This document shows, one piece after another, positions 6,070 through 54,571 of a DNA stretch of 64,000 nt; within the stretch, counting starts at the first letter, position 1, and each line of letters begins with the position of its first letter. Position numbers and translations under genes: made by a program. The stretch is taken from positions 1-64,000 of the IMG/VR virus record IMGVR_UViG_3300021962_000056. One strand, written 5' to 3'. The notes beneath the pieces were generated by a model. The model saw only the letters and a program-made list of their open reading frames with translations, searched no databases and was not told the DNA's origin. This stretch comes from a virus.

Positions 6070-6073
6070 GGGG

Positions 6074-19413: not shown

Positions 19414-21849
19414 ATGCCACTTTCACAACAAGAATCTGAGCTTCTTCAGAGCCTTAAAGCCGAAGTCGCTCGGAGAATGGCGTCAAGCAATGCCACTCCT
19501 GCTCAGCCTTCTATCCCTCAATTCGAAACCGCTGCCGCTGTCGGATCGACCGCTCAGTTGAATCGGGCTGTACAACAGTCGGCCACTGTTGGCGAGATGC
19601 GTCGTCGCGAGGAGCAGGGCCTTGTTTCCGCGCTTAATCCAGAGCAGATCAGGCAAGCGACGATGAGTGACGCTGCTCGGATGGGCGAGGCAATGCAGCA
19701 AGAGGAGGCTCGTCTTGCTGCTGCTGGCGCACCGTCAATGTTTGATGAAACTGCACCTACCAAGGAAGAAGTTTCTCAAGGTGTAAGATATGGTGCAGGC
19801 CCATTGCTTCAGACAATGGGTGTTCCGTTTCCCGTTGGCCAAGCCATCGGTGAAACAGGTTATCAGTTGATGTCTGGAGAAACTAGCCCTCGAAAGATTG
19901 CGGCAGCAGCGGCAAAAGAAGCTGTCACATCTTTAGGTGGTGGGGCTGCAAAAATTTTGCCAGGGCCAATTAGAAGGAATCTTTTTGAAACTGGACAAAC
20001 ACTTCTCAGTGCTGCCGCAAAAGTTCCAATTCAAGGAGCGATGCGAGGTTTGGCCGGTGAGGCTACAAGAGCTTCAGTTGCTGGAGAAGAATGGAAGTTT
20101 GATAACTTTCTTGATGCAGCAAGAGATTACGCCGTTGGAGAAACTGCGGGAAGTCTTGCTGGTAACTTGATCGGTGCTGGATATCGCAAGTACAAAGGAG
20201 GCGGAGATTTTCTCGGTGAGTTGAGTCGTCCGTTTTACGATCAGTTTCAGAGGAACATTGCTGATAAGGAAGGGGAGCTTGCTGGTAAGCTGGCTAGGGC
20301 ATATCGAGCAGATCCAGATCAAGTGAAAAACGTTCTTGCTCAGTCTTTCAAGCAGAACTCAACCAAGTCTGGACAAGAGTTTGCCGATGCGGCTGTTGCT
20401 GATGTCGAAAAAGTATTCGGAAAACTCGACGAAGAGACGACAAACGCTTTCAGCAAGTTGGCCAACGATTACGACAAGATGGAGTCGTTGACGCTTGGTG
20501 AAGCTGTTGGAGTTGTTAAAAACACTGCACAGAGTGTTTACGACAGGAAGAATGAGGCTTTTGGAAAAGAGTTTGACACTTTTCGGGCAGACCCTCGCGT
20601 TCAATCAAAAGATTACGACAAGTCGGTTGCCAGAGGCGGTGAACTTTACGGTCCAGTTAGCGGAAAAAGTCTGAACGACCTTTGGAAAGAACAGCAGGAT
20701 GCCGCAAAAGCAATCAAGTGGGGCGAACCTGTCAAAGCTGGCACTGGCGATCAATGGGCCGCTTACAACCAAGCGAAGGCAAAGTTTGAAGATGCTCTTG
20801 GTCAGTTTGAAAAAAGGTTTCCCAAAGATCCTCTCATCCAAAATTTCAGAGACTTGAAGGATCGGTACTCTGGATTCATGGAGGACTACAATACCACTTT
20901 TTCAAAAGGAATTCTTAAGGACATCGGAGAGCAAGGTGGATCTTGGTCTTCGATCATCAAAACTCTTGGAGGTTCTGACGGCCCTGCAAAACTTCAGCAG
21001 TTGAAGAAAATTCTAGCTGAAGACTATGACGGAATTAAATCAAAGATTGGAAACACGATCTACAACGATCTAAACAAAGGAGGTCAGATCAAGTTTCTGG
21101 ATAATCTTGAAAACGCGCTTTCAAAAGGATGGAACGGACTTCAAAAAGAAGTTCTTGATGAGTTCTTTCCAAACGTAACTAGAGATGGAATCAAGCAAGC
21201 GAGAGCAGCTTTTGAAGTGTCGTCGAAAAGTTTTGCTGAAGATTTCAGGAAGGCTTCACTAGGAAAAGGTGAAGGTGTAATTGCATCTCCAGATGTTGTT
21301 CTTGAGTTCCTGAATAACTCAAAAGAGAACGTGACGAAGGTTAAAAACGCACTGAGTGCAGAGACTTTGGCTGACACTCAGAATGCGTTGCTATCTCAGA
21401 TTGTCAGCGAAGCAAGTAAGAAAGGTCCTATCACAGCTAGGTCGTTCACTCAGTCGGCGGAGTCATGGCAGAACGCTTTAGATGGAGTTTTTGGTCCTTC
21501 TGGAAAAACCAAAATCGATGAAATAGCGAAGGCACTTGAAATAGGCGAAAAGAACAAGACGTCGCTTATTTCAAAGTTACTTCCTGGGGTTGCAGGTGCA
21601 ACTGCATTTGCAAAAGGAACGACGGCTGCTGGGCCGTTTTTTGGAATTGCTGGAAGCGAAAGAGCCTATCGCTGGACTGAAAAACTTCAGTCGAAGATTG
21701 TCGGTTATCTCTTGGACAATCCGAACTATCGCGCTGCTGTCATCAAGCCATTTGACCAGCTAACGAACGCCGAGACTCGCATGCTCGACAACGACATCCC
21801 GATGATCATCCGAAATCTGACCGTCAAAACCGTCATGTCTGGCGAATGA
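19414..21849 (+). CDS. internal virion / ejection protein (large)
   Basis: 811 aa, Ala/Gly-rich helical; third gene of the block. Confidence 0.5.
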   Translation: MPLSQQESELLQSLKAEVARRMASSNATPAQPSIPQFETAAAVGSTAQLNRAVQQSATVGEMRRREEQGLVSALNPEQIRQATMSDAARMGEAMQQEEARLAAAGAPSMFDETAPTKEEVSQGVRYGAGPLLQTMGVPFPVGQAIGETGYQLMSGETSPRKIAAAAAKEAVTSLGGGAAKILPGPIRRNLFETGQTLLSAAAKVPIQGAMRGLAGEATRASVAGEEWKFDNFLDAARDYAVGETAGSLAGNLIGAGYRKYKGGGDFLGELSRPFYDQFQRNIADKEGELAGKLARAYRADPDQVKNVLAQSFKQNSTKSGQEFADAAVADVEKVFGKLDEETTNAFSKLANDYDKMESLTLGEAVGVVKNTAQSVYDRKNEAFGKEFDTFRADPRVQSKDYDKSVARGGELYGPVSGKSLNDLWKEQQDAAKAIKWGEPVKAGTGDQWAAYNQAKAKFEDALGQFEKRFPKDPLIQNFRDLKDRYSGFMEDYNTTFSKGILKDIGEQGGSWSSIIKTLGGSDGPAKLQQLKKILAEDYDGIKSKIGNTIYNDLNKGGQIKFLDNLENALSKGWNGLQKEVLDEFFPNVTRDGIKQARAAFEVSSKSFAEDFRKASLGKGEGVIASPDVVLEFLNNSKENVTKVKNALSAETLADTQNALLSQIVSEASKKGPITARSFTQSAESWQNALDGVFGPSGKTKIDEIAKALEIGEKNKTSLISKLLPGVAGATAFAKGTTAAGPFFGIAGSERAYRWTEKLQSKIVGYLLDNPNYRAAVIKPFDQLTNAETRMLDNDIPMIIRNLTVKTVMSGE

Positions 21850-22138: not shown

Positions 22139-22339
22139 ATGGACAAGATGCGACTTGGTGGTGGCGGACGTTTCGAGAAGCTGGTTGGCCAGCTTGAGAA
22201 GAAGGGCGTGAAAGATCCTGCGGCTTTGGCAAGCGCAATTGGACGCAAGCAGCTCGGCAAGGCGAAGTTCCAATCGCTTGCTGCGAAAGGTCGTCGCCGC
22301 GCGATGCGGGAGAAGGAGTCTAGCTCCTCTTACGCTTAA
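22139..22339 (+). CDS. small basic protein (DP.ALA..IGRK.LG)
   Basis: Paralog of 56078..56230. Confidence 0.7.
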   Translation: MDKMRLGGGGRFEKLVGQLEKKGVKDPAALASAIGRKQLGKAKFQSLAAKGRRRAMREKESSSSYA

Positions 22340-24128
22340 AGCCGTTCGACGGTTTCTTATCAACGACGAACTTCTCTGGCTCCGCATGAGTCCATGAGAT
22401 GGTTCCAACGCCGCGCTGGATGATGATCGAGCCGACCTTCTTGTCCTCCTTGTCTCTCAATCCAGCGCGGTCTGCCCTCTTGGCCATGCCGAGCATGAAG
22501 CGGCGAGGATGATTGAATCCAAGCTCTTTCATCACAATCACCTCTCTCGCCCAGTTGGTCAGGTCTGAGCTTCCGAATCCTGAGTAGGCCAAATCTGCCA
22601 CGCTCTCAGGTTTGTCGTCCTTTCCCTTCGGCTTCGGGAAGTGATGTACCAGCACCAGGACAACTCCCGTCTCCATCATAATCGGCTGGAGCAGATGTCG
22701 CGTGAAGTTGGCGCAGACCTCGATGTCCGCAGGATTGCCGCCCATGTAGGAGAGCAGCGGATCGATGTAGACGATATCCGCCTTCGTCTTCCGAACCAGC
22801 CTACGCAGCATCGTGGCGAAATCCGCACCCGTCCGCACCGTCTCGCGGAAGAATAGCATGCCAGCTTGGCGAAGACCTTCCTGCCATCCATGTTGGCCAA
22901 AGACCGACATTGCTGCGCCTTTGAGACTGTCGTGTTGATCGGCGATGTCGTTCTCAGCTTGGATGTACGCTATCTTGAGCGGTCGTACCGGCTGCACTCC
23001 GAACCAAGCCGCCCCTCTGGCCCAGCACAGACCCTGATAGAAAGCCATCGAGCTTTTGCCGCATCCGCTCTGCCCAACGAATAGAAGCGACGATCCGCGA
23101 CGTAGCCACCTGTCTCCGATCAGATTGTCAGGATCATTCTCAGGGTCGTAGTCGATGATGCTCTGGAGCGTGAACTCCTGAGGCATGTCCTGAGACTCCA
23201 GATAGTCCGTGAACGCTTCCCAATTCACCGACCCGACATTGATGGCCAACAGCTTCTGCTCCTTGCCATCGCGCATCACACCGGCCAAGCGGCTGAACCT
23301 GCTTGCGTTCTTGTTCTTCGGATCGATGCCGAGAGCCTCTAGCTGGCGATAGACGACATCTCTCCGCTCGCCCCACTCCTCCTTGTTCGCCGCATCGACT
23401 CGCACCCATCCATGCAGACTCTTGCCGCCGGAATCGATGACGACGGAAAGCGGCAGCTTTGACTCCTTGAGAATCGTCCACTGCTCGTCCTTCGTCTTCT
23501 CATCCATCTCGACAAGGACATGTCGGAATGATGCTACGCCGGAATCTGATCCGCTTTCATCGAGACATGGATTGACTCTGACATACGCGCCACGGCTATC
23601 AGGACTGTTCCACATGGAACTAATCGGCGGCGTGAAATGATGCTTTATCCAATCATCGCGCTTGAGGAATGTACCCTTGGAAGCTGGCCTACATCTGCCA
23701 TCCTCGTCGCTTACGATATCATTGCAGATACAGACAACCTCGTCCGGTTCGAAGCATGCCTTGAGAAAATCGATGGTTGAAAATCTGAATTCCGGTTGCG
23801 GAATTGCTTGAATCTTTTGCACGACGAACTTGCCGGTAGTCGAGACTGGCGTTCCACTCTGCGCCGACAGAAGCCAGCCCTTCGGCTTGTCGTGCGCCAC
23901 GTTCATCGCCTGATTCACCTTGTGGGCCAGTTCATTGGCATTCCACGGTGGAACGCATTTCTCGTTGTACTCGGCGAGCAGTGCTTCAGCCGATCCTCGC
24001 GACAGCTCAAAGCCATGCACCAGAGCGGTGGCTACTGCGAAGGTTGCGTTATGACCGCCCTGTCCGCTGATGGCACCGGGGGTGTTACGAAGCCATGCTC
24101 GCGCACGGTCGATATTTGAATTGCTCAT
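22320..24128 (-). CDS. primase-helicase fusion (PriCT-like + RepB-type primase + AAA_25/RepA-like ATPase)
   Basis: VLVEMD, DSGGKSLHGW, DP....SR.SRL.G; Walker A GQSGCGKS, YIDPL, VHH. Confidence 0.8.
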   Translation of the reverse strand: MSNSNIDRARAWLRNTPGAISGQGGHNATFAVATALVHGFELSRGSAEALLAEYNEKCVPPWNANELAHKVNQAMNVAHDKPKGWLLSAQSGTPVSTTGKFVVQKIQAIPQPEFRFSTIDFLKACFEPDEVVCICNDIVSDEDGRCRPASKGTFLKRDDWIKHHFTPPISSMWNSPDSRGAYVRVNPCLDESGSDSGVASFRHVLVEMDEKTKDEQWTILKESKLPLSVVIDSGGKSLHGWVRVDAANKEEWGERRDVVYRQLEALGIDPKNKNASRFSRLAGVMRDGKEQKLLAINVGSVNWEAFTDYLESQDMPQEFTLQSIIDYDPENDPDNLIGDRWLRRGSSLLFVGQSGCGKSSMAFYQGLCWARGAAWFGVQPVRPLKIAYIQAENDIADQHDSLKGAAMSVFGQHGWQEGLRQAGMLFFRETVRTGADFATMLRRLVRKTKADIVYIDPLLSYMGGNPADIEVCANFTRHLLQPIMMETGVVLVLVHHFPKPKGKDDKPESVADLAYSGFGSSDLTNWAREVIVMKELGFNHPRRFMLGMAKRADRAGLRDKEDKKVGSIIIQRGVGTISWTHAEPEKFVVDKKPSNGFKRKRS

Positions 24129-25705: not shown

Positions 25706-26530
25706 TCAGAGAGCGCATCCACCTTCGCACTCAAAGTTGAAGGCTGATTGACCGCGCTCTCCGTCGGTCAGTTGAACCTCTTTCAGCGGGCGACAGCTCT
25801 TGTGGATGTAGAGCTTGTCGTTGGAATGTTTTGAATTGCTTACAACAACTCCTTCAACTCGAAGGGCATCGTCGATTTCAACAGCTCTAGCCCATCCATC
25901 CGAATCTGATTCTCTAAGTTGTAACCATTCATGGTCTGACTTGTACGGACAGAATACACAGGCAGAACGCGGAACCTGATGCGGGATTCCAAACGCTTCT
26001 AACCACTTCACGCAATCCGCTCTGGTCATCATCTTGTCGCAGAGCGGGAACTCGGGTTCAGACCAGTGCGGACTATTGCCTTTGATGCGTGTGGCTCGAC
26101 CTGCTTCATCGAGGCTGATTCCAAAAAGCTGTGTCAGCTTGGTTTTGATGCGCTGACCTTTTTCAAGCCCTAGAAGCTCTCTGCGAATGAATCGTTCGAT
26201 TGGAAGAATCTTGTACTCACTTGTACATTGTCTTCGTGTTATTCCAAGAGGCTCTCCCTCTTTTTGGGCTGTGAAAGCTGGTATTGCTGTAAATCTTTGA
26301 CCAGTTGAATTGACTCCATGAATCAGGTCGTTTCCAAGAATTCCAGCAGACACAACATGGATGATTGGCCCACCCAGACTCTTGAGCCACTCCATGTGGG
26401 CGTAGACTGACTTTGGCTCTTCTCCAAGATCAGCAAAGATGGCGCAATCAATCGGCGCAATCTCGCCTTTGATAGCCATGAGGTAGAGCGTCGTGGATTG
26501 TACGCCACCTCCGAGGTTCAGGATTCTCAT
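25706..26530 (-). CDS. PAPS-reductase-like adenine nucleotide alpha-hydrolase family protein
   Basis: LNLGGGVQST, FADLG.E, RQCT..YKI.PI, GISLDE..R, SACVFCPY. Confidence 0.75.
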   Translation of the reverse strand: MRILNLGGGVQSTTLYLMAIKGEIAPIDCAIFADLGEEPKSVYAHMEWLKSLGGPIIHVVSAGILGNDLIHGVNSTGQRFTAIPAFTAQKEGEPLGITRRQCTSEYKILPIERFIRRELLGLEKGQRIKTKLTQLFGISLDEAGRATRIKGNSPHWSEPEFPLCDKMMTRADCVKWLEAFGIPHQVPRSACVFCPYKSDHEWLQLRESDSDGWARAVEIDDALRVEGVVVSNSKHSNDKLYIHKSCRPLKEVQLTDGERGQSAFNFECEGGCAL

Positions 26531-26706
26531 TTGCTGTAATCCCTTATTTCGCCGCGTTTCACCTTTGAAATCCATCCAAGGCTGACCGCGTAGTCTTCCT
26601 TGATCTGCCGGTATCGTTTGCCCGACTTGATATCCTGAAGAACCTCGGAAACAACCGCTTGGGGTATGTGTCCGTTCAATGGGACGTAATTGCTAATCGT
26701 TCTCAT
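26527..26706 (-). CDS. 59-aa HTH-like protein (not in ORF track)
   Basis: MRTISNYVP...SGKRYRQIKEDYAVSLGWISKVKRG; fills the gap, ATGA overlap. Confidence 0.55.
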   Translation of the reverse strand: MRTISNYVPLNGHIPQAVVSEVLQDIKSGKRYRQIKEDYAVSLGWISKVKRGEIRDYSK

Positions 26707-26707
26707 T

Positions 26708-27067
26708 TTAGTAGCAAAGGACCGTTATTTGTTCGGCAGCGATTCTAACTGCGCTCTTGGTTTCGCCGCCATCACTCCACTTCTCAACCTTCACTCGGCC
26801 TTTGACACGCACCAGCGCGCCATTGCCGACTTCCATGATCTTTTCGGCAACCTGCCCCCATGAAGACAGCTCGAATTCATCGTAATCTTCGTGAAATCTG
26901 CCGTCCGCATCCGTCCAATGGCGAGCGATTGAAATGACGCGGCGCACCATAAGCGCGCCTGTCTTGGTTTCGGTTTGACGGCTGATTCCTCGTAGTTCGC
27001 CGATCAGATAAACCACATTCTCTGTGGGCGTGGCTGTTTCGTTTGTTGTTGTAATTGATGCACTCAT
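26708..27067 (-). CDS. ssb: single-stranded DNA-binding protein
   Basis: N.V.LIG.L, W.D.DG, WG..AE, G..V.V.GR, W...G OB-fold pattern. Confidence 0.7.
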   Translation of the reverse strand: MSASITTTNETATPTENVVYLIGELRGISRQTETKTGALMVRRVISIARHWTDADGRFHEDYDEFELSSWGQVAEKIMEVGNGALVRVKGRVKVEKWSDGGETKSAVRIAAEQITVLCY

Positions 27068-28146
27068 TGAAATACGCAACCTAGTTCTCGGTAGCACTTC
27101 ATCCGCTTCTTCGCGTGGAACGCTCCGATGGGATGAAACTTGTCCGAAAAATCAACGATTGTCGCACAGTTTTTGGTTTCTGTTTTTCGCAATGCGCGAC
27201 TCGCCCTCTGAATCGTCTTCTGCGACGACCGACCGCCGCTCACCATGATGAGCAGTTCGACATTGGGCAGATCAAGTCCTTCGTCGGCCAAACTTGTGGC
27301 AATCATCGTTCGCAGGTTTCCAGCCTTGAATTCCTCCATGTAGGCGCGCCTGTCCTTCTTCCCAATCTTGGAATGAACGAGCCGAGAATTCGGAATCCAG
27401 CTCTCGTACTCTTCTCCCAGCGTGATGCGCGGGATGAGGATGAGCGTCTGCATGTCGAGGTGTTCCAGCGCGTAGTTGATGGCGTATTGGTTTCGCTCAC
27501 GGTTCTGGCAGATGCCGATGTCCACAAGTGATTCCCAAGCGCACATGCGCTTCAGCTCTTCGTCGGTTATCCGCATGTACTTCCTGCGCGTCGTGAAAAG
27601 CCGGTCGATGTTGTCGTCAATCTTCTGCTGAAGATTCAGGTCGGTTGCGTCGCTGATTTCGAGGTATGCGTCGGCCAATGAATCCCCGATGTCGCTGCGC
27701 TTGATTTCGTAGGTGCGGTTGAAGAACAGCATTCGCGTCACCGCATTCCGCTCATCATCGTCGCACCAGGGAGTCGCATCGAATCCGTACCTAAATCCTT
27801 TGCAGGACTCGATGATGCGACGCCATCCGACAGCAGGGCTGTGCTTCGCTTCGTCAACGATCAGCAGACCCATTCCGCTGAAATCGACTGACTCATGCGG
27901 ACATCGTATCTGAACCAAATCGTCAGGAATTCCAGCAACTCGAAGTGCGGTGCGCGCTTGCTGGCAAGTCTCGCGGGTAGGAGCGAGCCAACCGCATCCG
28001 AATTTGAAATCCCATCCGATTGATTCGTAATGCTTGATGATGCTCGCGGCAATCCATGTCTTGCCGCTTCCAGCCGGTGCGATAATCAGGCCGTCGCTAG
28101 TTTTGGCCCACTCTACTGCGTTCTTTTGGTAGTATCTCAGATTCAT
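27064..28146 (-). CDS. SF2 DNA helicase
   Basis: LRYYQ, PAGSGKT, VDEAKH, ATP, EGLDLP, IQR.SR.LR. Confidence 0.85.
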   Translation of the reverse strand: MNLRYYQKNAVEWAKTSDGLIIAPAGSGKTWIAASIIKHYESIGWDFKFGCGWLAPTRETCQQARTALRVAGIPDDLVQIRCPHESVDFSGMGLLIVDEAKHSPAVGWRRIIESCKGFRYGFDATPWCDDDERNAVTRMLFFNRTYEIKRSDIGDSLADAYLEISDATDLNLQQKIDDNIDRLFTTRRKYMRITDEELKRMCAWESLVDIGICQNRERNQYAINYALEHLDMQTLILIPRITLGEEYESWIPNSRLVHSKIGKKDRRAYMEEFKAGNLRTMIATSLADEGLDLPNVELLIMVSGGRSSQKTIQRASRALRKTETKNCATIVDFSDKFHPIGAFHAKKRMKCYRELGCVFQ

Positions 28147-30354: not shown

Positions 30355-31132
30355 CTTTGAGGATCCAGGTTGGGGATTGAATGATCTGGATGGAATCGCC
30401 GTTGTACCCAGGCCAGCTGTCGGTGTCTTCGCAGACCATCCACTGGCGGATCCACGACTGCCACGTGCTGGACCCCTTGTCCAAGGATTCGGTGTCCAGC
30501 TGGTACACAGCGACCGCGTAGGGCGCTTGGTCTTCGACGCAGATCCACTGCCATGCGCGTGTCTCGCCGGTGATGTCCCGGTACAGGTCACGGTAGTAGG
30601 CAGCCTGCACGTCATAGCGCAGCTGGCCAATCTGGCGCCGGAACCCGGCCTTGCTAGCATCGCGGCATTTCTTCAGGTCCACGATTACCGGGGTCGTGTT
30701 GGGCAACCAGTCGATCAGGCCCTTGCGTTCGCAGGACTCGAACTCACCGAACATCCCGACCTGCGCTTTGCCCGGTTCCGCAAACAGGCGTCCCGCAACC
30801 GGGTGTTCGCGAACGGCCTCGACCATGCGCTCGACGGTTTCGATTGCGTCCTGCTTGAACACGGTGACGCCTCGGGCCTCCTGCTCGTCTCTCCAGCTGC
30901 GTGCCTCCTTGGTCCGGTAGTCATCGAATGGCGACGTGGTCCAGAGGTACGGCGTGCCGAGGACTTTGTGATCCAGCAGGGAGCCGATAGCCATGGCCTC
31001 GGACGGTTCGCGCTCTTCCTCAAAGCCGACCATGGCGTGCGCCGGTGACCGCGAGAAGGCCTTAAGGCTGGAGATGTTAATCGCCGGGTGTTGGCGATAC
31101 GTGTGTACGTCGATGGGGTGGACTAACTTCAC
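30338..31132 (-). CDS. PD-(D/E)XK exonuclease VIII (RecE-like)
   Basis: S.LK....SPAH, G...D, KG.IDW, VDLK, YDVQAAYY, WPGY. Confidence 0.8.
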   Translation of the reverse strand: MKLVHPIDVHTYRQHPAINISSLKAFSRSPAHAMVGFEEEREPSEAMAIGSLLDHKVLGTPYLWTTSPFDDYRTKEARSWRDEQEARGVTVFKQDAIETVERMVEAVREHPVAGRLFAEPGKAQVGMFGEFESCERKGLIDWLPNTTPVIVDLKKCRDASKAGFRRQIGQLRYDVQAAYYRDLYRDITGETRAWQWICVEDQAPYAVAVYQLDTESLDKGSSTWQSWIRQWMVCEDTDSWPGYNGDSIQIIQSPTWILKDETLP

Positions 31133-32130
31133 AGCGCACCTCCAGCCTTCATCATTGCCCGACCAATGCCGCGCTTGTTGCGGATCACCCACTTCTTCAG
31201 GTCTTCAGTCAGATCATTCGCCGTCGGGTACGCCTCGGGCGTCGGCCACCAGTTCAGTTCGGTGGCGAGTTTCACCAGCTGCTCGTAGGTCGCACCAACC
31301 GAGGCCAGCGTGGACTCGACGGTTTCTTCAACCAACTCGGGCAGCGGTGCCGGGGTGGCAGGAGCCTCGACCGGTGCGGGCTCAGGCTCGGGAGCCGGCG
31401 CAGGTTCAGGTTCAGGCACAGGCACAGGCTCAGCGACCGCGATGGCTTCGGGCTCGACCTTCTTCTTGCGCGGCTTGGGCTCAGGCGGATTCGGGGTCAC
31501 GTCCACAACGGAACTGGTCACGGTGGTAGCGACAGACGGCTGCACGACCTGTTGGGCTACCTGAGTGTCGTGGATCTCTTCCGAGGTGTGCATACCCAGC
31601 GCGATCTCCGGCGCATAGGCGCGGCACCAGAACGCAGCTGCGCGGTACTGAAGCATCTGCTCCGGCATGGTCTTCCATTTACTGCCAGACTTGCCATACC
31701 AACCCTCGGCCTTGGCCATGGCGATGGTAACCAAGGCGCCGACCAGTTCGAGATTGCCCTCGCGCTCGACAGCGAAAGCGCGGCAGCCCCAGTCATCCGT
31801 CCCCTCTTTTCCGACCCAACGGAAACGCATCGGGGAGAACCGGCCACAGGAGTTGACGGTGGCGATCAGGAACGAGGCAGACCACGTGGGCTTGCCGTGG
31901 ATTGGAACCATCGACTGCATCACGGCCATGACAGAGGCGCCGATGCGCTGACTGAGTTCGAGCGCGATGATGCAGTTGCCGAGGTTGGCTTCGCCCCGAT
32001 ACGAATCAGGAACGAGCGTGCTAGACGCAAGGGCCTTCGCCATGCGTTGCACTGAGACGAACGCGTTCTCCGAAGAGAAGGCGCTCAGGGGTTGCGATTG
32101 CTGTGTTGTTGCGACTTGTAGGTTGCTCAT
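31129..32130 (-). CDS. RecT-like single-strand annealing protein
   Basis: LVP..YRG...NC..A, I.GKP, A.AEGW......WKTMPEQML.YRA..F..R; Pro/Glu linker; adjacent to the exonuclease. Confidence 0.75.
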   Translation of the reverse strand: MSNLQVATTQQSQPLSAFSSENAFVSVQRMAKALASSTLVPDSYRGEANLGNCIIALELSQRIGASVMAVMQSMVPIHGKPTWSASFLIATVNSCGRFSPMRFRWVGKEGTDDWGCRAFAVEREGNLELVGALVTIAMAKAEGWYGKSGSKWKTMPEQMLQYRAAAFWCRAYAPEIALGMHTSEEIHDTQVAQQVVQPSVATTVTSSVVDVTPNPPEPKPRKKKVEPEAIAVAEPVPVPEPEPAPAPEPEPAPVEAPATPAPLPELVEETVESTLASVGATYEQLVKLATELNWWPTPEAYPTANDLTEDLKKWVIRNKRGIGRAMMKAGGAL

Positions 32131-32174: not shown

Positions 32175-35100
32175 TCAGAACGAATTTTTCAGATTTGTTC
32201 GGGCATTTCTGCGAATGCGGTCTGCGTTCTTGTCGATGAAGTCCGCTGCTTCGGCAGGCGGGAGTGCCAGCAGACGCTTGGAATTCTGCTCAATGAACTT
32301 GCGATAACCCTGACCAACGGCCCGTTGGTAGGCGTATTTCTCTTCGCGGGTCATCTCGCGGCGAGTGCCGTTCTCGTTGACCTTCACGGTGATAGCAGGC
32401 GTCGGCATAAACACGCCACGACTGGCGAGTTTGCCGAGAGTGCCCCAAGCTAGATCATCTTCGCGCTCCTTGGCCCATCGACTCCACGGATACCGCTCAA
32501 CCTTAACCGGCTCACCCAGCACGTTCAGGATAGGCCCCGGCCCAATCTCGCGACGGCCGAACGGCACCTGCTGGAGGAAGTATTCGTATCCGAAGTTGCC
32601 AGCCTCAGTCTTAAAGATCGACGGATCAGACCACGCATCGACTTCTTTCAAGATGTTGGGAACCAAAGACCCTGCTAGGCGCGAAACGTAGCGCGGGAAT
32701 GACTTCTCGATGAACTCGTCGGTGTCGTACTTGTAGGCGTTGGCAAAGCCTAGAAGCTCGGTCAGACCAGAGATCGCAGTCGAATCCTTGACGATGAACA
32801 TTCCAGCTGCGGCGCCATCTAGGATTTTTTCAACGATGTTTTCCTGGGACCACTTATCCGGTGAGAACAACTGGCGATCTCGGAGTTCACCAATAGTTGC
32901 AAGCACACCACCGAAGCCCAGCTGGCGGTAGGACACGTAGGTATTGCCAAACCGAATGGAATACGGCTGCCGACCTTCCGCTAGCAGCTGTTTGCGCTTG
33001 TTTGGATCGAGGGACTTAAACGAACCGGTAATGTCGATGTTGCGATCCTCTTCCTTGTCATCATCACCGAGAAACAGAGCGCCAGCATAGATGCCAAGCG
33101 CAGTTCCAAATGCTGCCTTCGCCAAGAGAAGGTCGCGGCGCGACTCGGAAAACTTCAGACCGTATTCGCCTTCTGACCTTCCAGGTGCGGATTGGTAGTA
33201 CCGAATAAACGCAACTGGGAAAGCGAAGTTCAGAATTTCGTTTGCAGAGTTTGCTGCGAACCGCAGGAAGTTTGTTCCCGACAGGACCTTGTAAAGCGTC
33301 TTGCCCTGAGCCGCTTGATCGAGACCACGGTACAAACTCCCAAGGATTCCCTGAGGCGTTTCAGTAAACGTGGTCATCTCGCGAATATCTTTCGCGGTCA
33401 GCAAGATTTCGACGGGCAGTTTCTCTTGGATGATTTCGCGGGTGCGCTTGTTGACGAGTTCAGGACGGGTGCCTTCGGCGATGGCTCGCGCTCGCGCCGC
33501 AGCGACCGCCTCTTTCGACGGAGTGAGATATCGACGCGCAACCTCGGGGCCGTACAACTTGCGTAACGCGTATGCCTTGGCGGTTGAGTCAGACATCAGC
33601 GCAGTCATGTGATCAAGCGCGTTGATGAGTCGGCCAACGTACTTGAACTGACTGATTCCCTTGGCAAACAAATTGCGAGACTGACCTAGTCCTTCAAGTG
33701 CGCTTCCCGGCTGGTCAGGGTTGAAGTTGACAGAGCGGTAAAGCTCGCCACGCCAGAGCATGGGCCAGAAGTCGCGGATGCCTTCATCGAGACCCTTAAG
33801 CGCGGAGTAGGCTACAAAGCCGGCATCCTTCTTTGCCATGCCAGCAAACATGGCTGTGTTAAGAAATCCGTTCCACACGTTTGCCCAGTTGTCCACCTGC
33901 GTGCGAACGCCTGATAGCACGGCAGCGTACCAGTAATCGCGGAGTGCATCAGAGAACCGCACACCGCCTTCGCGGGCCATGAGGCGGAACATCTGCTGGA
34001 TGATCTCGTTGCGGTTGACTCCGCCTTGAGCCTGTGCCTTCTGGGCCAGGTCGGTGATCTTGCGGGCCGTGGCGCCGTTTAATTCAGCGACACCAAACTC
34101 AGGCGCCACTGCATCGCGGAACGCCTGTTCCCATAGCAGGAAGGTATCGGGACCATCCTGAATCGAGAAGCTGCCCGGGGTGGCTCTCGCAATGTTGGCG
34201 TACTTCAGGATGCGGGGGAGAGATCGGAAGAGCTTCTCGCGAACATCAGGTTTTACGTTCGGCAGCGGCACCTTCTTCTGGAACTCAGCCCGGAAGATTT
34301 GGTTCCGCTTCGTTTCCCAGGCTTTGGTCAGGAGGTTGGTGATCTCCGCAATGCCAGCAGGGCTCAGGTTGCGCAGGCGGGGGTCAGCCAGGATAACCTG
34401 AAGCATCTTCTGCCGCACGGAGCCCTGGGTATCCAGAGCCTGAGTAAGGATGTCCTGCCACTTGATCTCGATGGGAGGGCCGTCAGGCTCGCCGGGGACC
34501 TGCTTGATCTTGCGGAACTCGCGGGCGAACACGTTGTCCGCCTTCTTCATGGCCTCGCGAATCTGGTTTACCGCCTCGCGGCCAGATTCGGTAAGCCATT
34601 TCCGCACCTGCTCAGACTCAATCTTCGAGAACGGAATCAACTCATCCTGACGCTTGCGAATCAGGTTGCGAAGGATCATCGCCGGCTGCGCCCACCAGAA
34701 GCGTTCCTGGGCGAGCTTGCGAGCGGCCATCGCCTTAGCAGTGACAGCACCAAGCGACTTCGCTGACTCCGCCAGTCGCTTCTCAAGGTTCAACGCTCGC
34801 AGTAGTTCGACGTCGTTCTTGGCTCGAGCGATGTCCAACTGGTTGCGTTGGATGATTTCCCCAAGGATGTATTCCTTGAATGCGTTGTCGATGTCTTCAC
34901 CTAGCACGACCTGATAGGCGCGCTCCAAATTGCCATTGAAGAAATCAACCCACTTTCTTGCCTCGGATGCCCAGTTCTCATCGGTATCCTTGCTGATGTC
35001 TCCGAGGAATAGGCCGCGAGAAGGAACGCGCACATCCGGCGACGGCGGCTGCGGACGCTCAGGTGTGCCAGCAGGGATCTCCTGATTCGGGAAAGCCTTG

Positions 35101-38100
35101 ATGTGCTCCTCGAAGTTTGCAGCGGTCTCCGGCTCGTTCTGCAACTGGACGTGGGACTTGATGTAGTCCATGCCGGCATTGCGAGCGGCCACCCATGACT
35201 TCGTGGACTGATAGATGCGCAGCGCGATCTTCGAGGCTTGGAAAACGACGAAGTTCGACAACGCGGCGACGGCCTCGAAGGCCTTGCCCCGGGGATCGGT
35301 TGCGGCGATTACCTTCTGGAGGGCGGCCTCGACCCGGTCGGGGCGTTGATTGCGCTCAGCCTCAGCCTCAGCGGCCCGTTGTTTCCGCAGCTGGACTAGG
35401 CGACGGGCTGCTCGCTCTTCGGCATTTCTGAGAGTTTGCGAAGCAGCCGCAGCTGCTTGGCTTTCAGATCGCGCCTGTCCTGCTCCTCGAAGTTCAGCAC
35501 TTCGTCGAGCAAGCTGCTCAACTTGGTTTCCGTAACCAGCTTCGGCGAGGATGCGGCGATATTCTCCATCGGCAAGAAGCGTAGCAAAGTCGGGAGTGCC
35601 CGCAATAGCTTCCTCGGTAAGCTCGCCAGCCCGCAGGATTTCAAGAGCGTTGCGGGTTTCTCCGCGCCTATCTTGAAGTTCGTATAGCGTCTTGGCCCAA
35701 CTCCAGACGGTTTCCTGAACCTCCGCTGGAGTCCATTGGTCGCCGGTAAGCTCGGTAAGATACTCCGCAGTGGCGCGCACCTTTGCTGACATGGCAAGGT
35801 AACCAGTCCCTTTTCCGGGATCAGTACCTGCGGCGTTCAGGCTTCCGCTAAACATAGCCTGATCGACTAGGGCAAAGTTTGCCATCCACGCGTCGTTGGT
35901 CACCTCGTTGACCACACCACGCAGGTTCAACATGAACGAGTTGACCTTAGGTCCACTCAGAGTAACTGAGGTTGGATCTTCCGAACTAAGAGCGCGAACC
36001 GAGTTGTTGATCCACGCATCAAGAACGCTCTCTTCACCTTTGTTCCCCTGCACCGAACGACCCATTACCGAAACGATTGCGGCGCGATCAGTTGGGCGCC
36101 CAGCTAGGTTCCAGTTTTTCCAAACATTGAGTGCGTTTATCAGGTTGCTCTCAACGCTGGTTTGCGGGCTAAGACCTGCTAGCAACGCAGCAAATCGAGG
36201 AGCATCGACTCCAAAGACGTCGATAAGTGCTTCAGCCGATTTGCGATACCAACCCCGTTTAACTGCTCCACCAAGGGCAGCCGCAGCAAACTCAGAGACA
36301 GACGGCAGTTTGTTAAACAGATCAACAAACCGTTTCTTTGTATCCGACCGCAACTTGCGGCGTTCCTCTGGAATAAGGTGACGAGCTTTCTGCTTGTACC
36401 CGCTGAGTTTTCCGTCATCAACAATCTCTGAAGCTGAACGACCCAGAACAAGATCGGTTTCAAACTGATTCCGCACGGCCTCAAGATTAACCTTGGCAGC
36501 CTGTTTCTCGTTTAGGTTAGTGCGAATGTATTCGATTGCTGCGTCGATTGCTTGCGTGACCGCCCTGCCAGCCCGTAGCGCGTTTTGGGCGGTGATCAAC
36601 GCACCATTCCAGACGAGCGCAGGAATCCCAAGGACGGCATCGAATGTTCCGCCGGTATCAACTTTGAGGTTTTCCAGCTTGGCGATTGCTTTGTCTACCT
36701 TACCGACTGGAGCAGGTGTAGGCGCCGCCGCCGGAGCCTTCCGCCGCTTATCCAACTCCATGCTCAGGTAACCAGCAAACTCGCTGAAGGCATCAGTCGT
36801 GTCCTCGGCGCTTCCCATGGACTTCTGAACGCTGGCGATCTCAGCGGCATCTCTGGCTGTGATGTAACCGGCAGCAACGGCCTTTTTGACCATCGCACGC
36901 AGCTTGGCCGGAGATTCGAGATTCGTAATCGCGCCATCTACATCTTCGATGAATGCGGCGAGCTTCTCGTTGGGATCGGCTTGGGGTGCGGGGGTGGGCT
37001 TGGCCGGAGTGGGCGCCGGCGCGGGCGCAGGTGCAGGTGCCGGACGCTCCGCTGCGGCAATCGGCTGCGGTGCCAGCACGATAACAGCGGGCTTCTTCTG
37101 AGTTCCACCGGTGCTAGTGCGAGCCAATTCCTTAAGCTGGGCACGCACGGTCTTGCCATGTGCCCGAATCTTTTCGGGCGACATACCGGAGACCTCTACC
37201 GCCCAATCCATGAATTGCTGATCAGCCTCTGACGGTTTCTCCTGAGCAAGGATGTAAGCGGCTCGATCGAAGTCACTGCCTAACGTCGGCAGAAACACAT
37301 TGCTGCCAAAGTTGTACCGGGGAGTTGACCTCGCGAGTTCCTTCGGGAGCTTGGCAGAGTGGATTTGATCCGCAGGTGAAACGCCCTGAGCGGCAGCAGC
37401 AGGTCGCACACCTCGTTTCGCCGCCCGCATTTCAGCCTGTTTCTCTGCGGCTGACTTCCGGACTGCCGGCGCCATGTATCCTTCAGGAAGCGCCTGCGGA
37501 TATTGTTTCCGGAGAAAATCAATGCGCGCTTCTGGCAGCCGATCGAGTGTTTCAGCCTTCAGCTGCTTTCCGCTTTCGGCAGCACTACGAATCATCAACC
37601 AGTATTCCAGGTTTGAGTCTTCCTGAGAAAACTGAGCGCGAACCTCGGCCTCGGTGAGATCATTGGCCTTGGCGATTTCTTTGACCCGCTTGGTGTAGTA
37701 TTGCTTTTCGGTGAGTTCTTCGTCGGGCTTGATTGCAGGTGAAGGGGCAGGAGTCGGAGCAGGCGCAGGCGCCGGAGCAACCTCCGCCTTTACTTGCTGT
37801 ACTTCTTCCGGGGTGACTTCGGCTTCGGCCCCTCCGACTTCGGCAGGCCGCCCTCCTTGATCCATTTGTCGCAATCCCACTTCGACTGGGGGTTGCGGTT
37901 CTTCTCGGCGTAGCACGCCTTCATCTGGGCCTTGTTTTTGAACGGCACTGGGTGCGGGGGTTGTGGGTTGTGTTGCAGCCGGCTCGGTACCCAATCGGGC
38001 GCGATAGGCTGCAAGAGTGATAGCACCTTCCTCGCTGAGTGTGCCGGCATCTTCGGCCGTGATCAGTTCATCGAGTTCATCCTGCTCATCGGCGGTCAGG

Positions 38101-39545
38101 CCGGTCTCGGTATCGACAGGTGCGGCGGGTGCGGGGGCAGGCGCAGGGGCAGGAGCCTTCCCGACAACCGGAGCCGGAATGCCCATCTTCTGGTGCATCA
38201 ACGTTAGCTCCGCAAGCTCATCTGGATTGATCGTGCCAGCGTCGGCTTTTAGTCGCAGCTGGTCCAAACGGATAACATCAACTTCAGGCGCGGGTTTGGG
38301 CTTAGGCGTCGGCGTCTGTGTAACAACCTCATTCTGGCCAGTAACCCCAGTCTCCTGGGACATCTTGAGAACATCTTCGGCAGTAATCTCGGCTTCACCC
38401 TCTTGCTGCGTATCTTCAATCCCGGCCACGGTGGCGTTAGCACGCGGCAATGGGTTTGCGGGATCGCCTCCCAACGATTCAGCCGCAGCATCACCCAAGT
38501 TGGCATTTCGGCGTGAACCAACCAGACCACCAACAGCACCTCCAGATATGGATCCAATGAATCCGGCCTGTGCAACACCATCAAGCCACCCTCGTTCGGG
38601 ATCATACACCGCAGCGGCAGCAATGTTTCCTCCAAGCTGCTCAGCCGATTCTTGGACACCTTCAGTTGCCAGCGCCTCGACAGCGCCACGGACACGTTCA
38701 GCACCCGTGACTCCAAGGAACTTTCTTTGGAACTTGGCAGACTTGGGAACCAACCTCTCGGCAAGCCGTGCTCCAATGCCTCCGATTTCGCCAGTAGCAA
38801 AGCGTTGAACAACTTTAGGTGCTGCTCCCAGCAATCCCTCGGTGACAGCTCCAATGGGTGCGGTTGTAACAAACGCCCCATATTTCATCTGTTCGCGGCG
38901 ATCTTGAAGATCCGCAGCGACATCATACTGCTGGTTGGCTAGAGCCTGAGCAATACGACGGTTGATCGTAGTGTCAGCCTCATCAAGCGCCGATTCACCT
39001 GCTTGCAGTCCGTATGCGATACCTCCGGTTAGAGCACCAGCCGGACCAGCGATTGCCGCAGCTGGAAGGACAGAGACCGTGCTTCCGATGCCACCCATGA
39101 TTTGAGCGGGTACGGACTCTCGCACGCCGGGTAGGCCTGGGTAGGTTTCCTGCCCGAACTCTTGGACAGCTTGACCGGCCTTAAAAATCGGGCTTTGAGT
39201 GGCTGAGCGTTGTTGTTGCTCGAATGGGGTCTCCGTAAACGGATCGCCAGCCTCAAAGGTTCTGGCAAATGCTTTCGCGGTTTGGCCCAGTCCTTCGAGC
39301 GCCCCACGCGGCAACTCGGAAAGAGTGTTGAGCGCAGTCTCGACTGTGCCGTACTGCCCAAGTTGAAACTTGGCTTTCTCTTCGCGCTCAGTCTCTGCTG
39401 CTAGCTCTTCCTGCCGCTGCTCTATCAAACTTTTTCGGATCGCTTGATAGTTATCGCGGACGTACTGCTGGGCCTGCTCCTCTGAAACATCGTCCGGGAA
39501 TGCAACGGCGCCCAAATCACGTCCAAAGTCGATCTCGATTGCCAT
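32175..39545 (-). CDS. giant internal virion / polyvalent protein with a central HhH-GPD-like domain
   Basis: 2456 aa; last gene of the ejection block; Pro-Ala linkers; C-terminal G.QPYSI..G..Y.SY motif seen in large podovirus internal proteins. Confidence 0.7.
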   Translation of the reverse strand: MAIEIDFGRDLGAVAFPDDVSEEQAQQYVRDNYQAIRKSLIEQRQEELAAETEREEKAKFQLGQYGTVETALNTLSELPRGALEGLGQTAKAFARTFEAGDPFTETPFEQQQRSATQSPIFKAGQAVQEFGQETYPGLPGVRESVPAQIMGGIGSTVSVLPAAAIAGPAGALTGGIAYGLQAGESALDEADTTINRRIAQALANQQYDVAADLQDRREQMKYGAFVTTAPIGAVTEGLLGAAPKVVQRFATGEIGGIGARLAERLVPKSAKFQRKFLGVTGAERVRGAVEALATEGVQESAEQLGGNIAAAAVYDPERGWLDGVAQAGFIGSISGGAVGGLVGSRRNANLGDAAAESLGGDPANPLPRANATVAGIEDTQQEGEAEITAEDVLKMSQETGVTGQNEVVTQTPTPKPKPAPEVDVIRLDQLRLKADAGTINPDELAELTLMHQKMGIPAPVVGKAPAPAPAPAPAAPVDTETGLTADEQDELDELITAEDAGTLSEEGAITLAAYRARLGTEPAATQPTTPAPSAVQKQGPDEGVLRREEPQPPVEVGLRQMDQGGRPAEVGGAEAEVTPEEVQQVKAEVAPAPAPAPTPAPSPAIKPDEELTEKQYYTKRVKEIAKANDLTEAEVRAQFSQEDSNLEYWLMIRSAAESGKQLKAETLDRLPEARIDFLRKQYPQALPEGYMAPAVRKSAAEKQAEMRAAKRGVRPAAAAQGVSPADQIHSAKLPKELARSTPRYNFGSNVFLPTLGSDFDRAAYILAQEKPSEADQQFMDWAVEVSGMSPEKIRAHGKTVRAQLKELARTSTGGTQKKPAVIVLAPQPIAAAERPAPAPAPAPAPTPAKPTPAPQADPNEKLAAFIEDVDGAITNLESPAKLRAMVKKAVAAGYITARDAAEIASVQKSMGSAEDTTDAFSEFAGYLSMELDKRRKAPAAAPTPAPVGKVDKAIAKLENLKVDTGGTFDAVLGIPALVWNGALITAQNALRAGRAVTQAIDAAIEYIRTNLNEKQAAKVNLEAVRNQFETDLVLGRSASEIVDDGKLSGYKQKARHLIPEERRKLRSDTKKRFVDLFNKLPSVSEFAAAALGGAVKRGWYRKSAEALIDVFGVDAPRFAALLAGLSPQTSVESNLINALNVWKNWNLAGRPTDRAAIVSVMGRSVQGNKGEESVLDAWINNSVRALSSEDPTSVTLSGPKVNSFMLNLRGVVNEVTNDAWMANFALVDQAMFSGSLNAAGTDPGKGTGYLAMSAKVRATAEYLTELTGDQWTPAEVQETVWSWAKTLYELQDRRGETRNALEILRAGELTEEAIAGTPDFATLLADGEYRRILAEAGYGNQVEQLARRSAELRGAGQARSESQAAAAASQTLRNAEERAARRLVQLRKQRAAEAEAERNQRPDRVEAALQKVIAATDPRGKAFEAVAALSNFVVFQASKIALRIYQSTKSWVAARNAGMDYIKSHVQLQNEPETAANFEEHIKAFPNQEIPAGTPERPQPPSPDVRVPSRGLFLGDISKDTDENWASEARKWVDFFNGNLERAYQVVLGEDIDNAFKEYILGEIIQRNQLDIARAKNDVELLRALNLEKRLAESAKSLGAVTAKAMAARKLAQERFWWAQPAMILRNLIRKRQDELIPFSKIESEQVRKWLTESGREAVNQIREAMKKADNVFAREFRKIKQVPGEPDGPPIEIKWQDILTQALDTQGSVRQKMLQVILADPRLRNLSPAGIAEITNLLTKAWETKRNQIFRAEFQKKVPLPNVKPDVREKLFRSLPRILKYANIARATPGSFSIQDGPDTFLLWEQAFRDAVAPEFGVAELNGATARKITDLAQKAQAQGGVNRNEIIQQMFRLMAREGGVRFSDALRDYWYAAVLSGVRTQVDNWANVWNGFLNTAMFAGMAKKDAGFVAYSALKGLDEGIRDFWPMLWRGELYRSVNFNPDQPGSALEGLGQSRNLFAKGISQFKYVGRLINALDHMTALMSDSTAKAYALRKLYGPEVARRYLTPSKEAVAAARARAIAEGTRPELVNKRTREIIQEKLPVEILLTAKDIREMTTFTETPQGILGSLYRGLDQAAQGKTLYKVLSGTNFLRFAANSANEILNFAFPVAFIRYYQSAPGRSEGEYGLKFSESRRDLLLAKAAFGTALGIYAGALFLGDDDKEEDRNIDITGSFKSLDPNKRKQLLAEGRQPYSIRFGNTYVSYRQLGFGGVLATIGELRDRQLFSPDKWSQENIVEKILDGAAAGMFIVKDSTAISGLTELLGFANAYKYDTDEFIEKSFPRYVSRLAGSLVPNILKEVDAWSDPSIFKTEAGNFGYEYFLQQVPFGRREIGPGPILNVLGEPVKVERYPWSRWAKEREDDLAWGTLGKLASRGVFMPTPAITVKVNENGTRREMTREEKYAYQRAVGQGYRKFIEQNSKRLLALPPAEAADFIDKNADRIRRNARTNLKNSF
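37790..37948 (-). CDS. 52-aa basic protein overprinted in an alternative frame of the giant gene
   Basis: GTG start; (M)PFKNKAQMKACYA...KWDCDKW resembles stand-alone MPFKSKAQ-type phage microproteins. Confidence 0.6.
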   Translation of the reverse strand: MPFKNKAQMKACYAEKNRNPQSKWDCDKWIKEGGLPKSEGPKPKSPRKKYSK

Positions 39546-52297: not shown

Positions 52298-54571
52298 ATG
52301 AGCTTCAAGGAACCCAGCAGAGTCTGGAACGTCGTTAGCGCCATGCTCGAAGCGGAACAGCCGCGCTCCCGCAACCGAGCGCGCATCAACTCCTGCTTCA
52401 ACGGCAACCCTCCATACACCCAGGAGGAAGCACGCGACAACCGCATCCAGACGAACGTCAACTTCCTGGAAGGCACCCGGATCATCCATGCCTCTCGCCA
52501 GCAGTTCACGAACGCCTTCTTGAAGCCGCAGAATTACTTCTCGGTTGGTCTCGACATCGGACCCCGCGACAAGCGCACCCAGTGGGGCAACATCATCACG
52601 AAGCAGCTGAACCGCGTGATGAAGCGGTCTCCGAAATACTCTACGGTCTTGGAGTCTCAGTTTGCGGCCACGGTGCTTCACGGCATCGGGCCAGTCACTT
52701 GGCTTCGTGATCGCGACTGGTGCCCATCGGCTCGCGGCACTGAGGACATCTTGGTCCCGACCAACACGTTGACTACGATGGAGAACCTGTCGCACTTCGC
52801 GATCTACACGTCCTTTACGGCTCAGGACCTGATCCGTATGACCCGTGGTGAGAACGTGGACCCCGGCTGGAATCTGACGCTGGTGAACCAGCTGCTGGCA
52901 GCGATGATCGAACGCGAGGCTACCAGCCTCCAGGTCAACGACTGGTCTGGCCAATACTTCCCTGAGAAGATTGAGGAAGATTTCAAGGAGAACTCCGGCT
53001 ACTGGGGTTCCGACGCGACACCGGTGCTGCGTTGCTACGACTTCTACTTCCTGGACACGACCAGTGACGACCCCTCCTGGCGCCGCCGTATCATCGTTGA
53101 CCAGTACAACAGCGGCATCGGCAATATGCAGACCGCTGGACAGTGGCTCTTCGATGCGGGAGATCGGTGTTACGGCCGCGACATCTTTGAACTGATGCAC
53201 GTCCAGTTTGCCGACGGCGCTGTAGTGCCTCCGTTCCGGTGGCATTCCGTGCGGTCACTCGGATACCTGCTGTACTCTGTCTGCCATCTCCAGAATCGGA
53301 TGCGCTGCAAATTCACCGACTCGGTGTTCGAGCAGATGCTGTGGCTCTTCCGCAACGTCGCGGACGGCGACATGGAGCGCATGGAGAAGATCGACCTGTT
53401 CAACATGGGCGTGATCCCCGAAGGACTCTCATGGGTTCCGCAGTCCGAACGTCACGTGCTGGACTACCCGATGCTCTCGGGCGCCATGGCCATGCACCGA
53501 CAGATCATGGCCGAGTCCAGTGCGGCCTACACGCAAGACGTGAACGACGGTTCATCGAAGGAACTCACAGCGACCGAGGTGATGGCCCGCGTGAACAACG
53601 CCAATGCGCTCATGGGCTCGATGCTCACCCGCGCCTACACTCAGCAGACCTTCCAGTACCGCGAGATCGCTCGCCGGTTCTGCACGATCGACCATCCCGA
53701 CTGCGTTCAGTTCCGTCGCAAGTGCGAAGCCGAAGGCGTCGATCCATCCGTGTTCAACAACCTCGACAGCTGGGACATCATGCCTGAGCGCGTCATGGGC
53801 TCCGGCAACAAGATGCTCGAGATCGCGCAGGCTGACCGACTCATGGCCATCCGGCCGTTGCTAGCACCGGATTCCCAAGCCGAGGTGGTTCATATGTACG
53901 TCGAGGCCAACACTGACGATCCCCTCCTGGCGAATCGTCTCGCACCGGTGGACAACAAACCCGTCTCGCCGGCCGTCGAGCGCGCTACGATGGCGTGGGG
54001 AACGCTCATCGACGGTCAGCCGGTGGTTATCGCGACTTCGATCAATCGGCCCGAGTACATCCAGACGCTTCTCCAGATGCTTGGTGGCGCTATCGGGCGC
54101 ATCGAGAAGGAGCAGAACGGTATGCCGACCATGGAACGCGTGCTTGGCTTGGCCAACGTCATTCAGCACATCCAGGAGCAGATGCAGTTGATCGCTCAGG
54201 ACCCCGGCCAGGAGCAGAACATGAAGCTCTACAACGACGGCATCGCTCAGGCCTCGAACTACATCAAGGGCTACGTGCAGCGTCTTCAGCAGCAAGCTCA
54301 GGCTCAGGCCGAAGCAGGCGCAGCTGGAAATGGAATGGATGCCGAGACCGCTGCGAAGATCCAGTCGATGCTCATCACCGCGCAGTCCAAGGCTCAGATC
54401 GCTGCCGCGAACTCCGAGCAGAAGCGCGTCCAGAAGCAGGTGGCATTCGAGCAAGACCAACAGCGCAAGAACGCCAACACGATCGCCGAGGCTCAGCGCA
54501 AGGGCGCACTCACTCGGGCGGACATTGCCGCCATGGATCTCAAGACTCAGGCCGACATCCTTAACCAATGA
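52298..54571 (+). CDS. portal protein (module B)
   Basis: Paralog of 6694..8943; TATE motif; Gln-rich tail. Confidence 0.75.
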   Translation: MSFKEPSRVWNVVSAMLEAEQPRSRNRARINSCFNGNPPYTQEEARDNRIQTNVNFLEGTRIIHASRQQFTNAFLKPQNYFSVGLDIGPRDKRTQWGNIITKQLNRVMKRSPKYSTVLESQFAATVLHGIGPVTWLRDRDWCPSARGTEDILVPTNTLTTMENLSHFAIYTSFTAQDLIRMTRGENVDPGWNLTLVNQLLAAMIEREATSLQVNDWSGQYFPEKIEEDFKENSGYWGSDATPVLRCYDFYFLDTTSDDPSWRRRIIVDQYNSGIGNMQTAGQWLFDAGDRCYGRDIFELMHVQFADGAVVPPFRWHSVRSLGYLLYSVCHLQNRMRCKFTDSVFEQMLWLFRNVADGDMERMEKIDLFNMGVIPEGLSWVPQSERHVLDYPMLSGAMAMHRQIMAESSAAYTQDVNDGSSKELTATEVMARVNNANALMGSMLTRAYTQQTFQYREIARRFCTIDHPDCVQFRRKCEAEGVDPSVFNNLDSWDIMPERVMGSGNKMLEIAQADRLMAIRPLLAPDSQAEVVHMYVEANTDDPLLANRLAPVDNKPVSPAVERATMAWGTLIDGQPVVIATSINRPEYIQTLLQMLGGAIGRIEKEQNGMPTMERVLGLANVIQHIQEQMQLIAQDPGQEQNMKLYNDGIAQASNYIKGYVQRLQQQAQAQAEAGAAGNGMDAETAAKIQSMLITAQSKAQIAAANSEQKRVQKQVAFEQDQQRKNANTIAEAQRKGALTRADIAAMDLKTQADILNQ

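Follow-up and report, generated by a model that had tools for sequence, protein, structure and literature searches.

A small basic protein gene, probably embedded in a giant virion gene, from a widespread family of viral N-terminal modules

Introduction

Small genes lying wholly inside larger ones are familiar from phages as the embedded spanin genes, Rz/Rz1 of lambda and 18.5/18.7 of T7. Classical viral overprinting is known from the genes of phiX174 and from the overlapping genes of RNA viruses, and there the new frame is as a rule young and confined to few taxa. The first 64,000 nucleotides (nt) of the IMG/VR virus record IMGVR_UViG_3300021962_000056, here called the window, hold a comparable arrangement. 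On the minus strand, an open reading frame (ORF) of 52 codons plus stop at 37790-37948 occupies the +1 frame of a giant gene of 2456 amino acids (aa) in the virion-gene region (32175-39545, minus strand), and it is highly likely that this ORF is a real protein-coding gene.

The arrangement matches that of Rz1 within Rz: a complete small ORF with a start codon of its own sits, in the +1 register, inside a larger phage gene that runs in the same direction, gene callers miss it, and the embedded frame is under purifying selection (dNN/dNS of 0.17-0.22 in three clades). Unlike Rz1, the product is predicted to be soluble and basic, with a polar N-terminus (MPFKNKAQ) and without a lipoprotein signal, and the gene is embedded in three unrelated host genes and also occurs free-standing, while here it is the host frame that looks like the unconstrained reading. 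An o-spanin (Rz1) identity was considered and rejected, as there is no hydrophobic signal or lipobox and the gene is located in a virion/head module and not in a lysis cassette.

As in classical overprinting, two proteins would be drawn from one stretch of DNA and constraint is asymmetric between the frames. Unlike in classical overprinting, it is the host linker that looks younger, and the family of the embedded frame is very widespread, its 464 clusters ranging from phages to giant-virus-like proteins. The overlap is thus atypical, with an embedded frame that is widespread and constrained, a host frame that is effectively free, and one cassette placed in three unrelated structural genes. The small gene also falls outside described protein families, having no Pfam family and a weak PHROG link.

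Position of the nested gene

The whole small ORF is contained in the giant ORF, its codons beginning 1 nt downstream of the host codons. The sequence-only reading had placed a gene here that opens with GTG (37946-37948), encodes a basic protein and lies within a linker flanked by Pro-Ala runs, and each of these statements holds. The translation from GTG agrees with the earlier one, except that the initial V is read as M. The product has 15 K+R against 5 D+E and a computed isoelectric point (pI) of 10.0. Across the overlap the host frame (aa 533-585) reads as an acidic linker with a pI of 4.3, bordered upstream by a Pro-Ala run at 38124-38156 (aa 464-474) and downstream by a Pro-Ala/Thr run at 37743-37778 (aa 590-601), both on the minus strand.

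Within the nested gene, residues 2-33 (37850-37945) form a conserved core, predicted as helix-loop-helix from alignment A1 and the structural model described below, and residues 34-52 (37793-37849) a variable, Lys/Pro-rich basic tail that is predicted to be disordered; the gene ends in TAA at 37790-37792. The small frame stays open for 34 codons upstream of the GTG, so that its stop-to-stop span covers 86 codons (37790-38050, minus strand), headed by an ATG at 38050. Same-strand alternative-frame ORFs of at least 52 codons number 11 in the giant gene, the longest of 210 codons, so an open frame by itself is no evidence for a gene. It is by comparative evidence only that the nested ORF is set apart from the others.

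Recurrence in unrelated host genes

Back-translated scanning of IMG/VR yielded 230 stretches; the best 80 were kept (L001-L080), and 77 of these 80 carry the peptide at a constant offset inside a far longer ORF. Another scan started from stand-alone-type sequences and yielded 46 nested copies, 5 free-standing ones and 4 that form the N-terminus of a fusion. Altogether, about 120 sampled viral loci have the same nested peptide (MPFKNKAQ…C…W-x-C-x-x-W) in the same frame offset.

The host genes fall into three classes. The first comprises giants of ~2500 aa on GC-rich contigs of ~45 kb, the kin of the window (L001-L028); the second, giants of 1650-2800 aa on AT-rich contigs of ~60 kb (L031-L039); and the third, an ORF of ~397 aa (L040-L080) that lies downstream of TerL, between a portal gene (phrog_6547) and a 485-aa structural gene (phrog_13704). 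The resemblance between the ~397-aa host and the giant of the window is limited to the overlapped ~60 residues, and the three host genes are mutually unrelated.

Among GenBank phages, tblastn matched 68 genomes of Flavobacterium phage Elemovirus and a single spring-water podovirus, whose copies of the peptide sit inside "structural" proteins of 3694 and 3859 aa; giants of 2500-3800 aa assigned to the second host class include those of the cultured Flavobacterium Elemovirus, which is grown on Flavobacterium sp. BAL314. In the Elemovirus record NC_055853 the nested ORF occupies 52379-52504, within gp18. The nested gene is unannotated in the GenBank records of both groups, as had been expected of standard annotation. 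Gene callers forbid fully embedded genes, which is why a gene conserved in cultured Flavobacterium phages and a hundred or more uncultured ones has gone without annotation. A word-indexed search did return four called proteins on short metagenome contigs, two of which start with Met exactly at the position of the GTG in the window. Each genome record searched in this respect (that of the window and five other viral records) has exactly one copy, and in the two records estimated to be complete the sole copy is the nested one.

Selection on the two frames

Constraint was assessed in three clades, namely the window clade, the AT-rich giants and the ~397-aa clade, with an OLGenie-style partition of substitutions. 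In the ~397-aa clade (28 genes), entropy is highest at host codon position 3 everywhere except in the nested ORF, where the entropy of host position 3 drops to 0.05-0.37 and the maximum lies instead at host position 1, which is the wobble (third) position of the small frame. The window clade (17 sequences) behaves alike, as the peak of variation switches to the small-frame wobble position over the nested ORF and host position-3 entropy is 1.2-1.7 in the flanks versus 0.03-0.39 inside. When the full-length giant alignment was scanned in 323 segments, aa 527-575 was the only clear region in which host position 3 was not the most variable.

The small frame has a dNN/dNS of 0.18 in the window clade (bootstrap 95% confidence interval (CI) 0.05-0.43), 0.17 in the AT-rich giants (CI 0.06-0.34) and 0.22 in the ~397-aa clade (CI 0.10-0.37), and none of 2000 resamples reached 1 in any clade. 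Over the same overlap the host frame has a dNN/dSN of 1.1-2.4, and charge-reversing E/K swaps in the host linker correspond to silent Lys codons in the small frame. The entropy switch, the substitution ratios and the silent swaps together place the constraint on the small frame, and the host frame need only stay open. The small frame is thus under purifying selection, and the overlapped host frame shows none.

The converse reading, in which the linker of the giant is selected, for example as a short acidic motif common to scaffold-like and internal virion proteins, and the small ORF is incidental, draws on a host-frame translation in which similarity between clades can likewise be recognised (A-[VI]-Q-[EK]-Q…L-R). 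It is extremely unlikely, given that variation concentrates at host position 1 with host position 3 the least variable, that the two ratios point the other way and that the E/K swaps are silent in the small frame. In addition, free-standing homologs have the host-like frame closed by stops. One of the ~400-aa hosts (L136:4357-4836), which differs from its relative L141:4781-5260 at 14 of 480 nt, carries a CAA-to-TAA nonsense codon in the host frame within the overlap and keeps the small ORF intact; this codon is either a natural knockout of the host frame or a sequencing error. The overlap offers a clean genetic system, as either frame can be knocked out by single-base changes to which the other is blind.

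The sharp island of nucleotide conservation within a fast-evolving linker could also be thought to mark a nucleic-acid element such as an RNA structure, a packaging site or a promoter. This we regard as barely credible: the conservation has a 3-nt periodicity with its wobble at the third position of the small frame, and between GC-rich and AT-rich genomes, and in free-standing genes, the proteins remain homologous down to about 40% identity. The predicted RNA fold of the region shows no extra stability relative to shuffled sequences (z = +1.04), on which ground an RNA structure was rejected.

Free-standing copies and the wider family

A profile built from 30 nested and free copies was searched against 1.84 billion representative proteins (E<=1e-3) and matched 464 clusters at 50% identity, with proteins of 41-918 aa. 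In nearly all of the 150 listed matches from these 464 clusters the match begins at residue 1, and every match bearing a source name is labelled "hypothetical protein". The family, which is unnamed and was defined from alignments A1-A3, is referred to here as the "MPFK[NS]KAQ" N-terminal module. Residues M1, P2, F3, K4, N5, K6, Q8, A11, C12, W24, C26 and W29 are invariant in alignment A1; the tail varies between clades in length and sequence, and the position of the stop is not conserved. The window peptide has all the family-defining features (M1-P2-F3, Q8, C12, W24, C26, W29 and the variable loop A14-W24), with GTG in place of ATG, and its module likewise starts at residue 1, the GTG being aligned to the ATG of relatives.

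Genes for free-standing forms occur in L029, L089, L146, L156 and L158, and in three of these loci (L029, L089 and L156) they adjoin TerL. In L029 and L030 a 125-aa free-standing form lies behind a GGGAGG site, and the host-like frame is full of stops. A further arrangement is found in L019. There a giant ORF that matches aa 1495-2445 of the window's giant at 44% identity stops at 5978, and the small gene stands alone at 6001-6201, 23 nt past that stop. One lineage of giant genes therefore has the small gene in one of two places: inside, near aa 530, or as a free gene at the 3' end. Two points on which the sequence-only reading depended, stand-alone relatives and a frame kept open in related giants, are borne out: the profile search and the viral-contig scans recovered stand-alone relatives, and the frame is open in related giants as well as in two unrelated hosts, its start, ATG or GTG, being conserved in position. 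Its principal claim of a real nested gene in a linker is thus supported by recurrence, by stand-alone homologs and by frame-wise dN/dS, which finds the small frame constrained and the linker frame not.

Among the 150 relatives, the module is fused to phage tail lysozyme, YkuD, L-Ala-D-Glu peptidase, endolysin and tail-associated lysin domains, and further to tape measure, virion structural protein and LigT/2'-5' RNA ligase. The chlorovirus (PBCV-specific) basic adaptor domain is the partner in 8 of the 150, including P0015 and P0257 (alignment A2). On four viral contigs of 100-180 kb (L095:5001-7040, L097:5001-8879, L096 and L099) the module forms the N-terminus of proteins of 481-1292 aa; the 1292-aa protein of L097 has PHROG matches (phrog_11180, 727 and 3477, function unassigned) at aa 135-300.

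Start codon and translation

The GTG aligns with the ATG of every more distant relative and is the start throughout the closest clade of the window; about 50 ATG sequences and 14 distinct ones of the GTG clade have their start at this position. In most loci the small frame is closed by a stop 0-12 codons before this start, and in L003 and L014 by one 11 codons before it. The nested copy in L024 has AGGAGG 8 nt upstream of its ATG. In the window, Shine-Dalgarno-like motifs are rare, being found at about 3 of the 26 starts of large ORFs, which suggests a host with Shine-Dalgarno-independent initiation. The 30 nt 5' of the GTG (37949-37978, minus strand) form a C/A-rich leader that is predicted to be mostly unpaired. 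An unstructured leader in a genome poor in Shine-Dalgarno sites makes internal initiation on the giant mRNA the simplest mechanism. The small protein would accordingly be made from the GTG on the transcript of the giant gene, behind the C/A-rich leader.

The small frame might instead be reached by frameshifting, a +1 shift yielding a truncated giant that ends in the module or a -1 shift yielding a C-terminal giant fragment tagged with it. In the window the small frame is indeed open for 34 codons 5' of the GTG, a -1 shift out of the small frame lands in the host frame, and natural proteins with the module N-terminal to a long protein exist. The in-frame stops shortly before a conserved start codon led us to reject both versions, and frameshifting is highly improbable also because the module stands at residue 1 in nearly all of the listed family matches, no slippery heptamer was seen by eye in the tail of the window's ORF, and neither the tail nor the stop position is conserved.

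Predicted product and family searches

AlphaFold2 (AF2) with alignment A1 predicted a helix at residues 6-18, a loop, a second helix at 26-33 and a disordered basic tail, with a predicted local distance difference test (pLDDT) score of 76-81 over the first 30 residues and 54-61 in the tail. The product would therefore consist of an N-terminal two-helix hairpin bearing the invariant Cys and Trp pairs, followed by a disordered Lys/Pro tail. The best matches of the model in BFVD were uncharacterised Harvfovirus and Terrestrivirus proteins (E 0.03-0.08). These neighbours and the chlorovirus adaptor fusions together indicate that the family seems to reach giant viruses of eukaryotes.

Searches for a described family gave little. 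Pfam and PHROGs assigned no family to the window peptide, the 86-codon frame or eight variants, and Pfam matched ten stand-alone or fused relatives in their C-terminal partner domains only. By language-model features the nearest named cluster is Pfam DUF3008 (PF11450), at 0.87, which is a lead only. DUF3008 comprises small basic proteins of phages and bacteria, and presumably has a K-S-K-A-Q-like N-terminal motif resembling that of the small protein. The likeness extends to size and basic character and not to the sequence profile: the PF11450 hidden Markov model (HMM) did not match the window peptide or 8 nested variants (E<=1 to E<=10) or any of 150 relatives at E<=0.01, and PF11450 was missing from the precomputed domains of 120 listed homologs (of 192 found). 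The small phage proteins of phrog_1375 (PHROGs v4, no function attached) are similar in kind and gave weak matches in 4 of the 150 relatives (best E 1.1e-3); the window peptide itself matched neither phrog_1375 nor any other PHROG at E<=1. The HMMs of the 2-cysteine adaptor domain (PF08793) and the PBCV basic adaptor (PF08789) did not match over the module itself, and where these domains occur, in 1 and 8 of the 150 relatives, respectively, they are always C-terminal fusion partners. A literature search for the motif, DUF3008 and Elemovirus proteomics returned nothing relevant, and one paper (PMC7077304) leaves the elemo phages aside and contains no mass spectrometry.

Points weighing against a functional gene

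Several observations count against the conclusion that a functional gene is present. One member of the window clade (L004:6001-6072), with 96% peptide identity to the window, has its small frame cut short by a stop at codon 24, while its host frame is open over 2536 codons. No other small frame among 65 distinct sequences is broken, and this one means that the gene is possibly dispensable or that the contig is in error. The leader of the GTG at 37948 has no Shine-Dalgarno motif, which says little given that about 3 of the 26 genes of the window have one, and we infer translation of the small gene from sequence. The AF2 model has a mean pLDDT of 69 and thus moderate confidence only, and BFVD offered no characterised match to its fold. 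Lastly, the docking function proposed below leans on gene neighbourhood and on fusion partners, most of which occur in 1 of the 150 relatives each.

The first two of these points would suit a small gene that was engulfed and is unexpressed in the GTG clade of the window, its conservation there reflecting recent common ancestry. The host position-3 entropy of 1.2-1.7 in the flanks, in a clade of 19 distinct sequences, is near saturation, and the small-frame dNN/dNS within that clade is far below 1, both of which speak against such a relic. GTG is a normal bacterial start codon, and Shine-Dalgarno motifs are rare for all genes of this genome. A relic is therefore considered very unlikely, and a real, selected gene is the reading retained here.

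Origin and possible function

The L019 layout and the wide spread of the family suggest that the small gene is the older, portable unit. Host genes would have grown across it or fused around it, and the acidic linker of the host would then be the secondary reading. The pattern of constraint in three unrelated hosts likewise points to giant virion genes that grow by swallowing neighbouring small genes.

As for function, the context is that of a head/virion module, since free copies lie by TerL and nested ones in a gene of the portal-capsid interval or in giant virion proteins. From this context the hairpin is tentatively proposed to serve the head and virion apparatus as a docking or adaptor module, with a basic and possibly DNA-binding tail; we hold this to be possible, though somewhat less probable than its alternatives. 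Such a hairpin would tie the basic tail, or a lysin or tape-measure cargo, to a virion component or to packaged DNA. Internal proteins of phage T4 carry an N-terminal capsid-targeting sequence of about 10 residues that is cleaved off, and the module may work in a like manner, being short and fixed at the extreme N-terminus of unrelated virion-associated proteins. It differs in that it is a predicted hairpin of ~33 residues, and there is no sequence relation.

A broader proposal, which we put forward as rather doubtful, combines both ideas. The small gene would be ancient and portable, genes in the scaffold position and giant virion genes would repeatedly have grown or fused across it, and the hairpin would be a general virion-docking tag of tailed phages and giant-virus-like proteins that imports a basic tail or enzymatic cargo. 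The host linker would then be the overprint, and the small gene an "engulfed gene". If true, a virion-docking tag would explain the fixed N-terminal place of the module on lysins, tape-measure proteins and other virion proteins.

Genome surroundings

The sole family matches of the 2456-aa giant are DUF7178 and phrog_3842, at aa ~1097-1286. The complete IMG/VR record (92.5 kb) holds a single match to the small gene, and the gene is confined to the giant of the second virion module (32175-57000); the search gave no match in the 811-aa counterpart at 19414-21849, in the first virion module (1-22300). The genes next to the giant encode a RecT-like annealing protein (31129-32130), a helicase (27064-28146), a PAPS-reductase-like protein (25706-26575) and a primase (22320-24128), all on the minus strand, and represent a replication module between the two virion modules. 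At 92.5 kb, compared with the ~45-kb contigs of relatives, the record of the window may consist of two related phages joined together.

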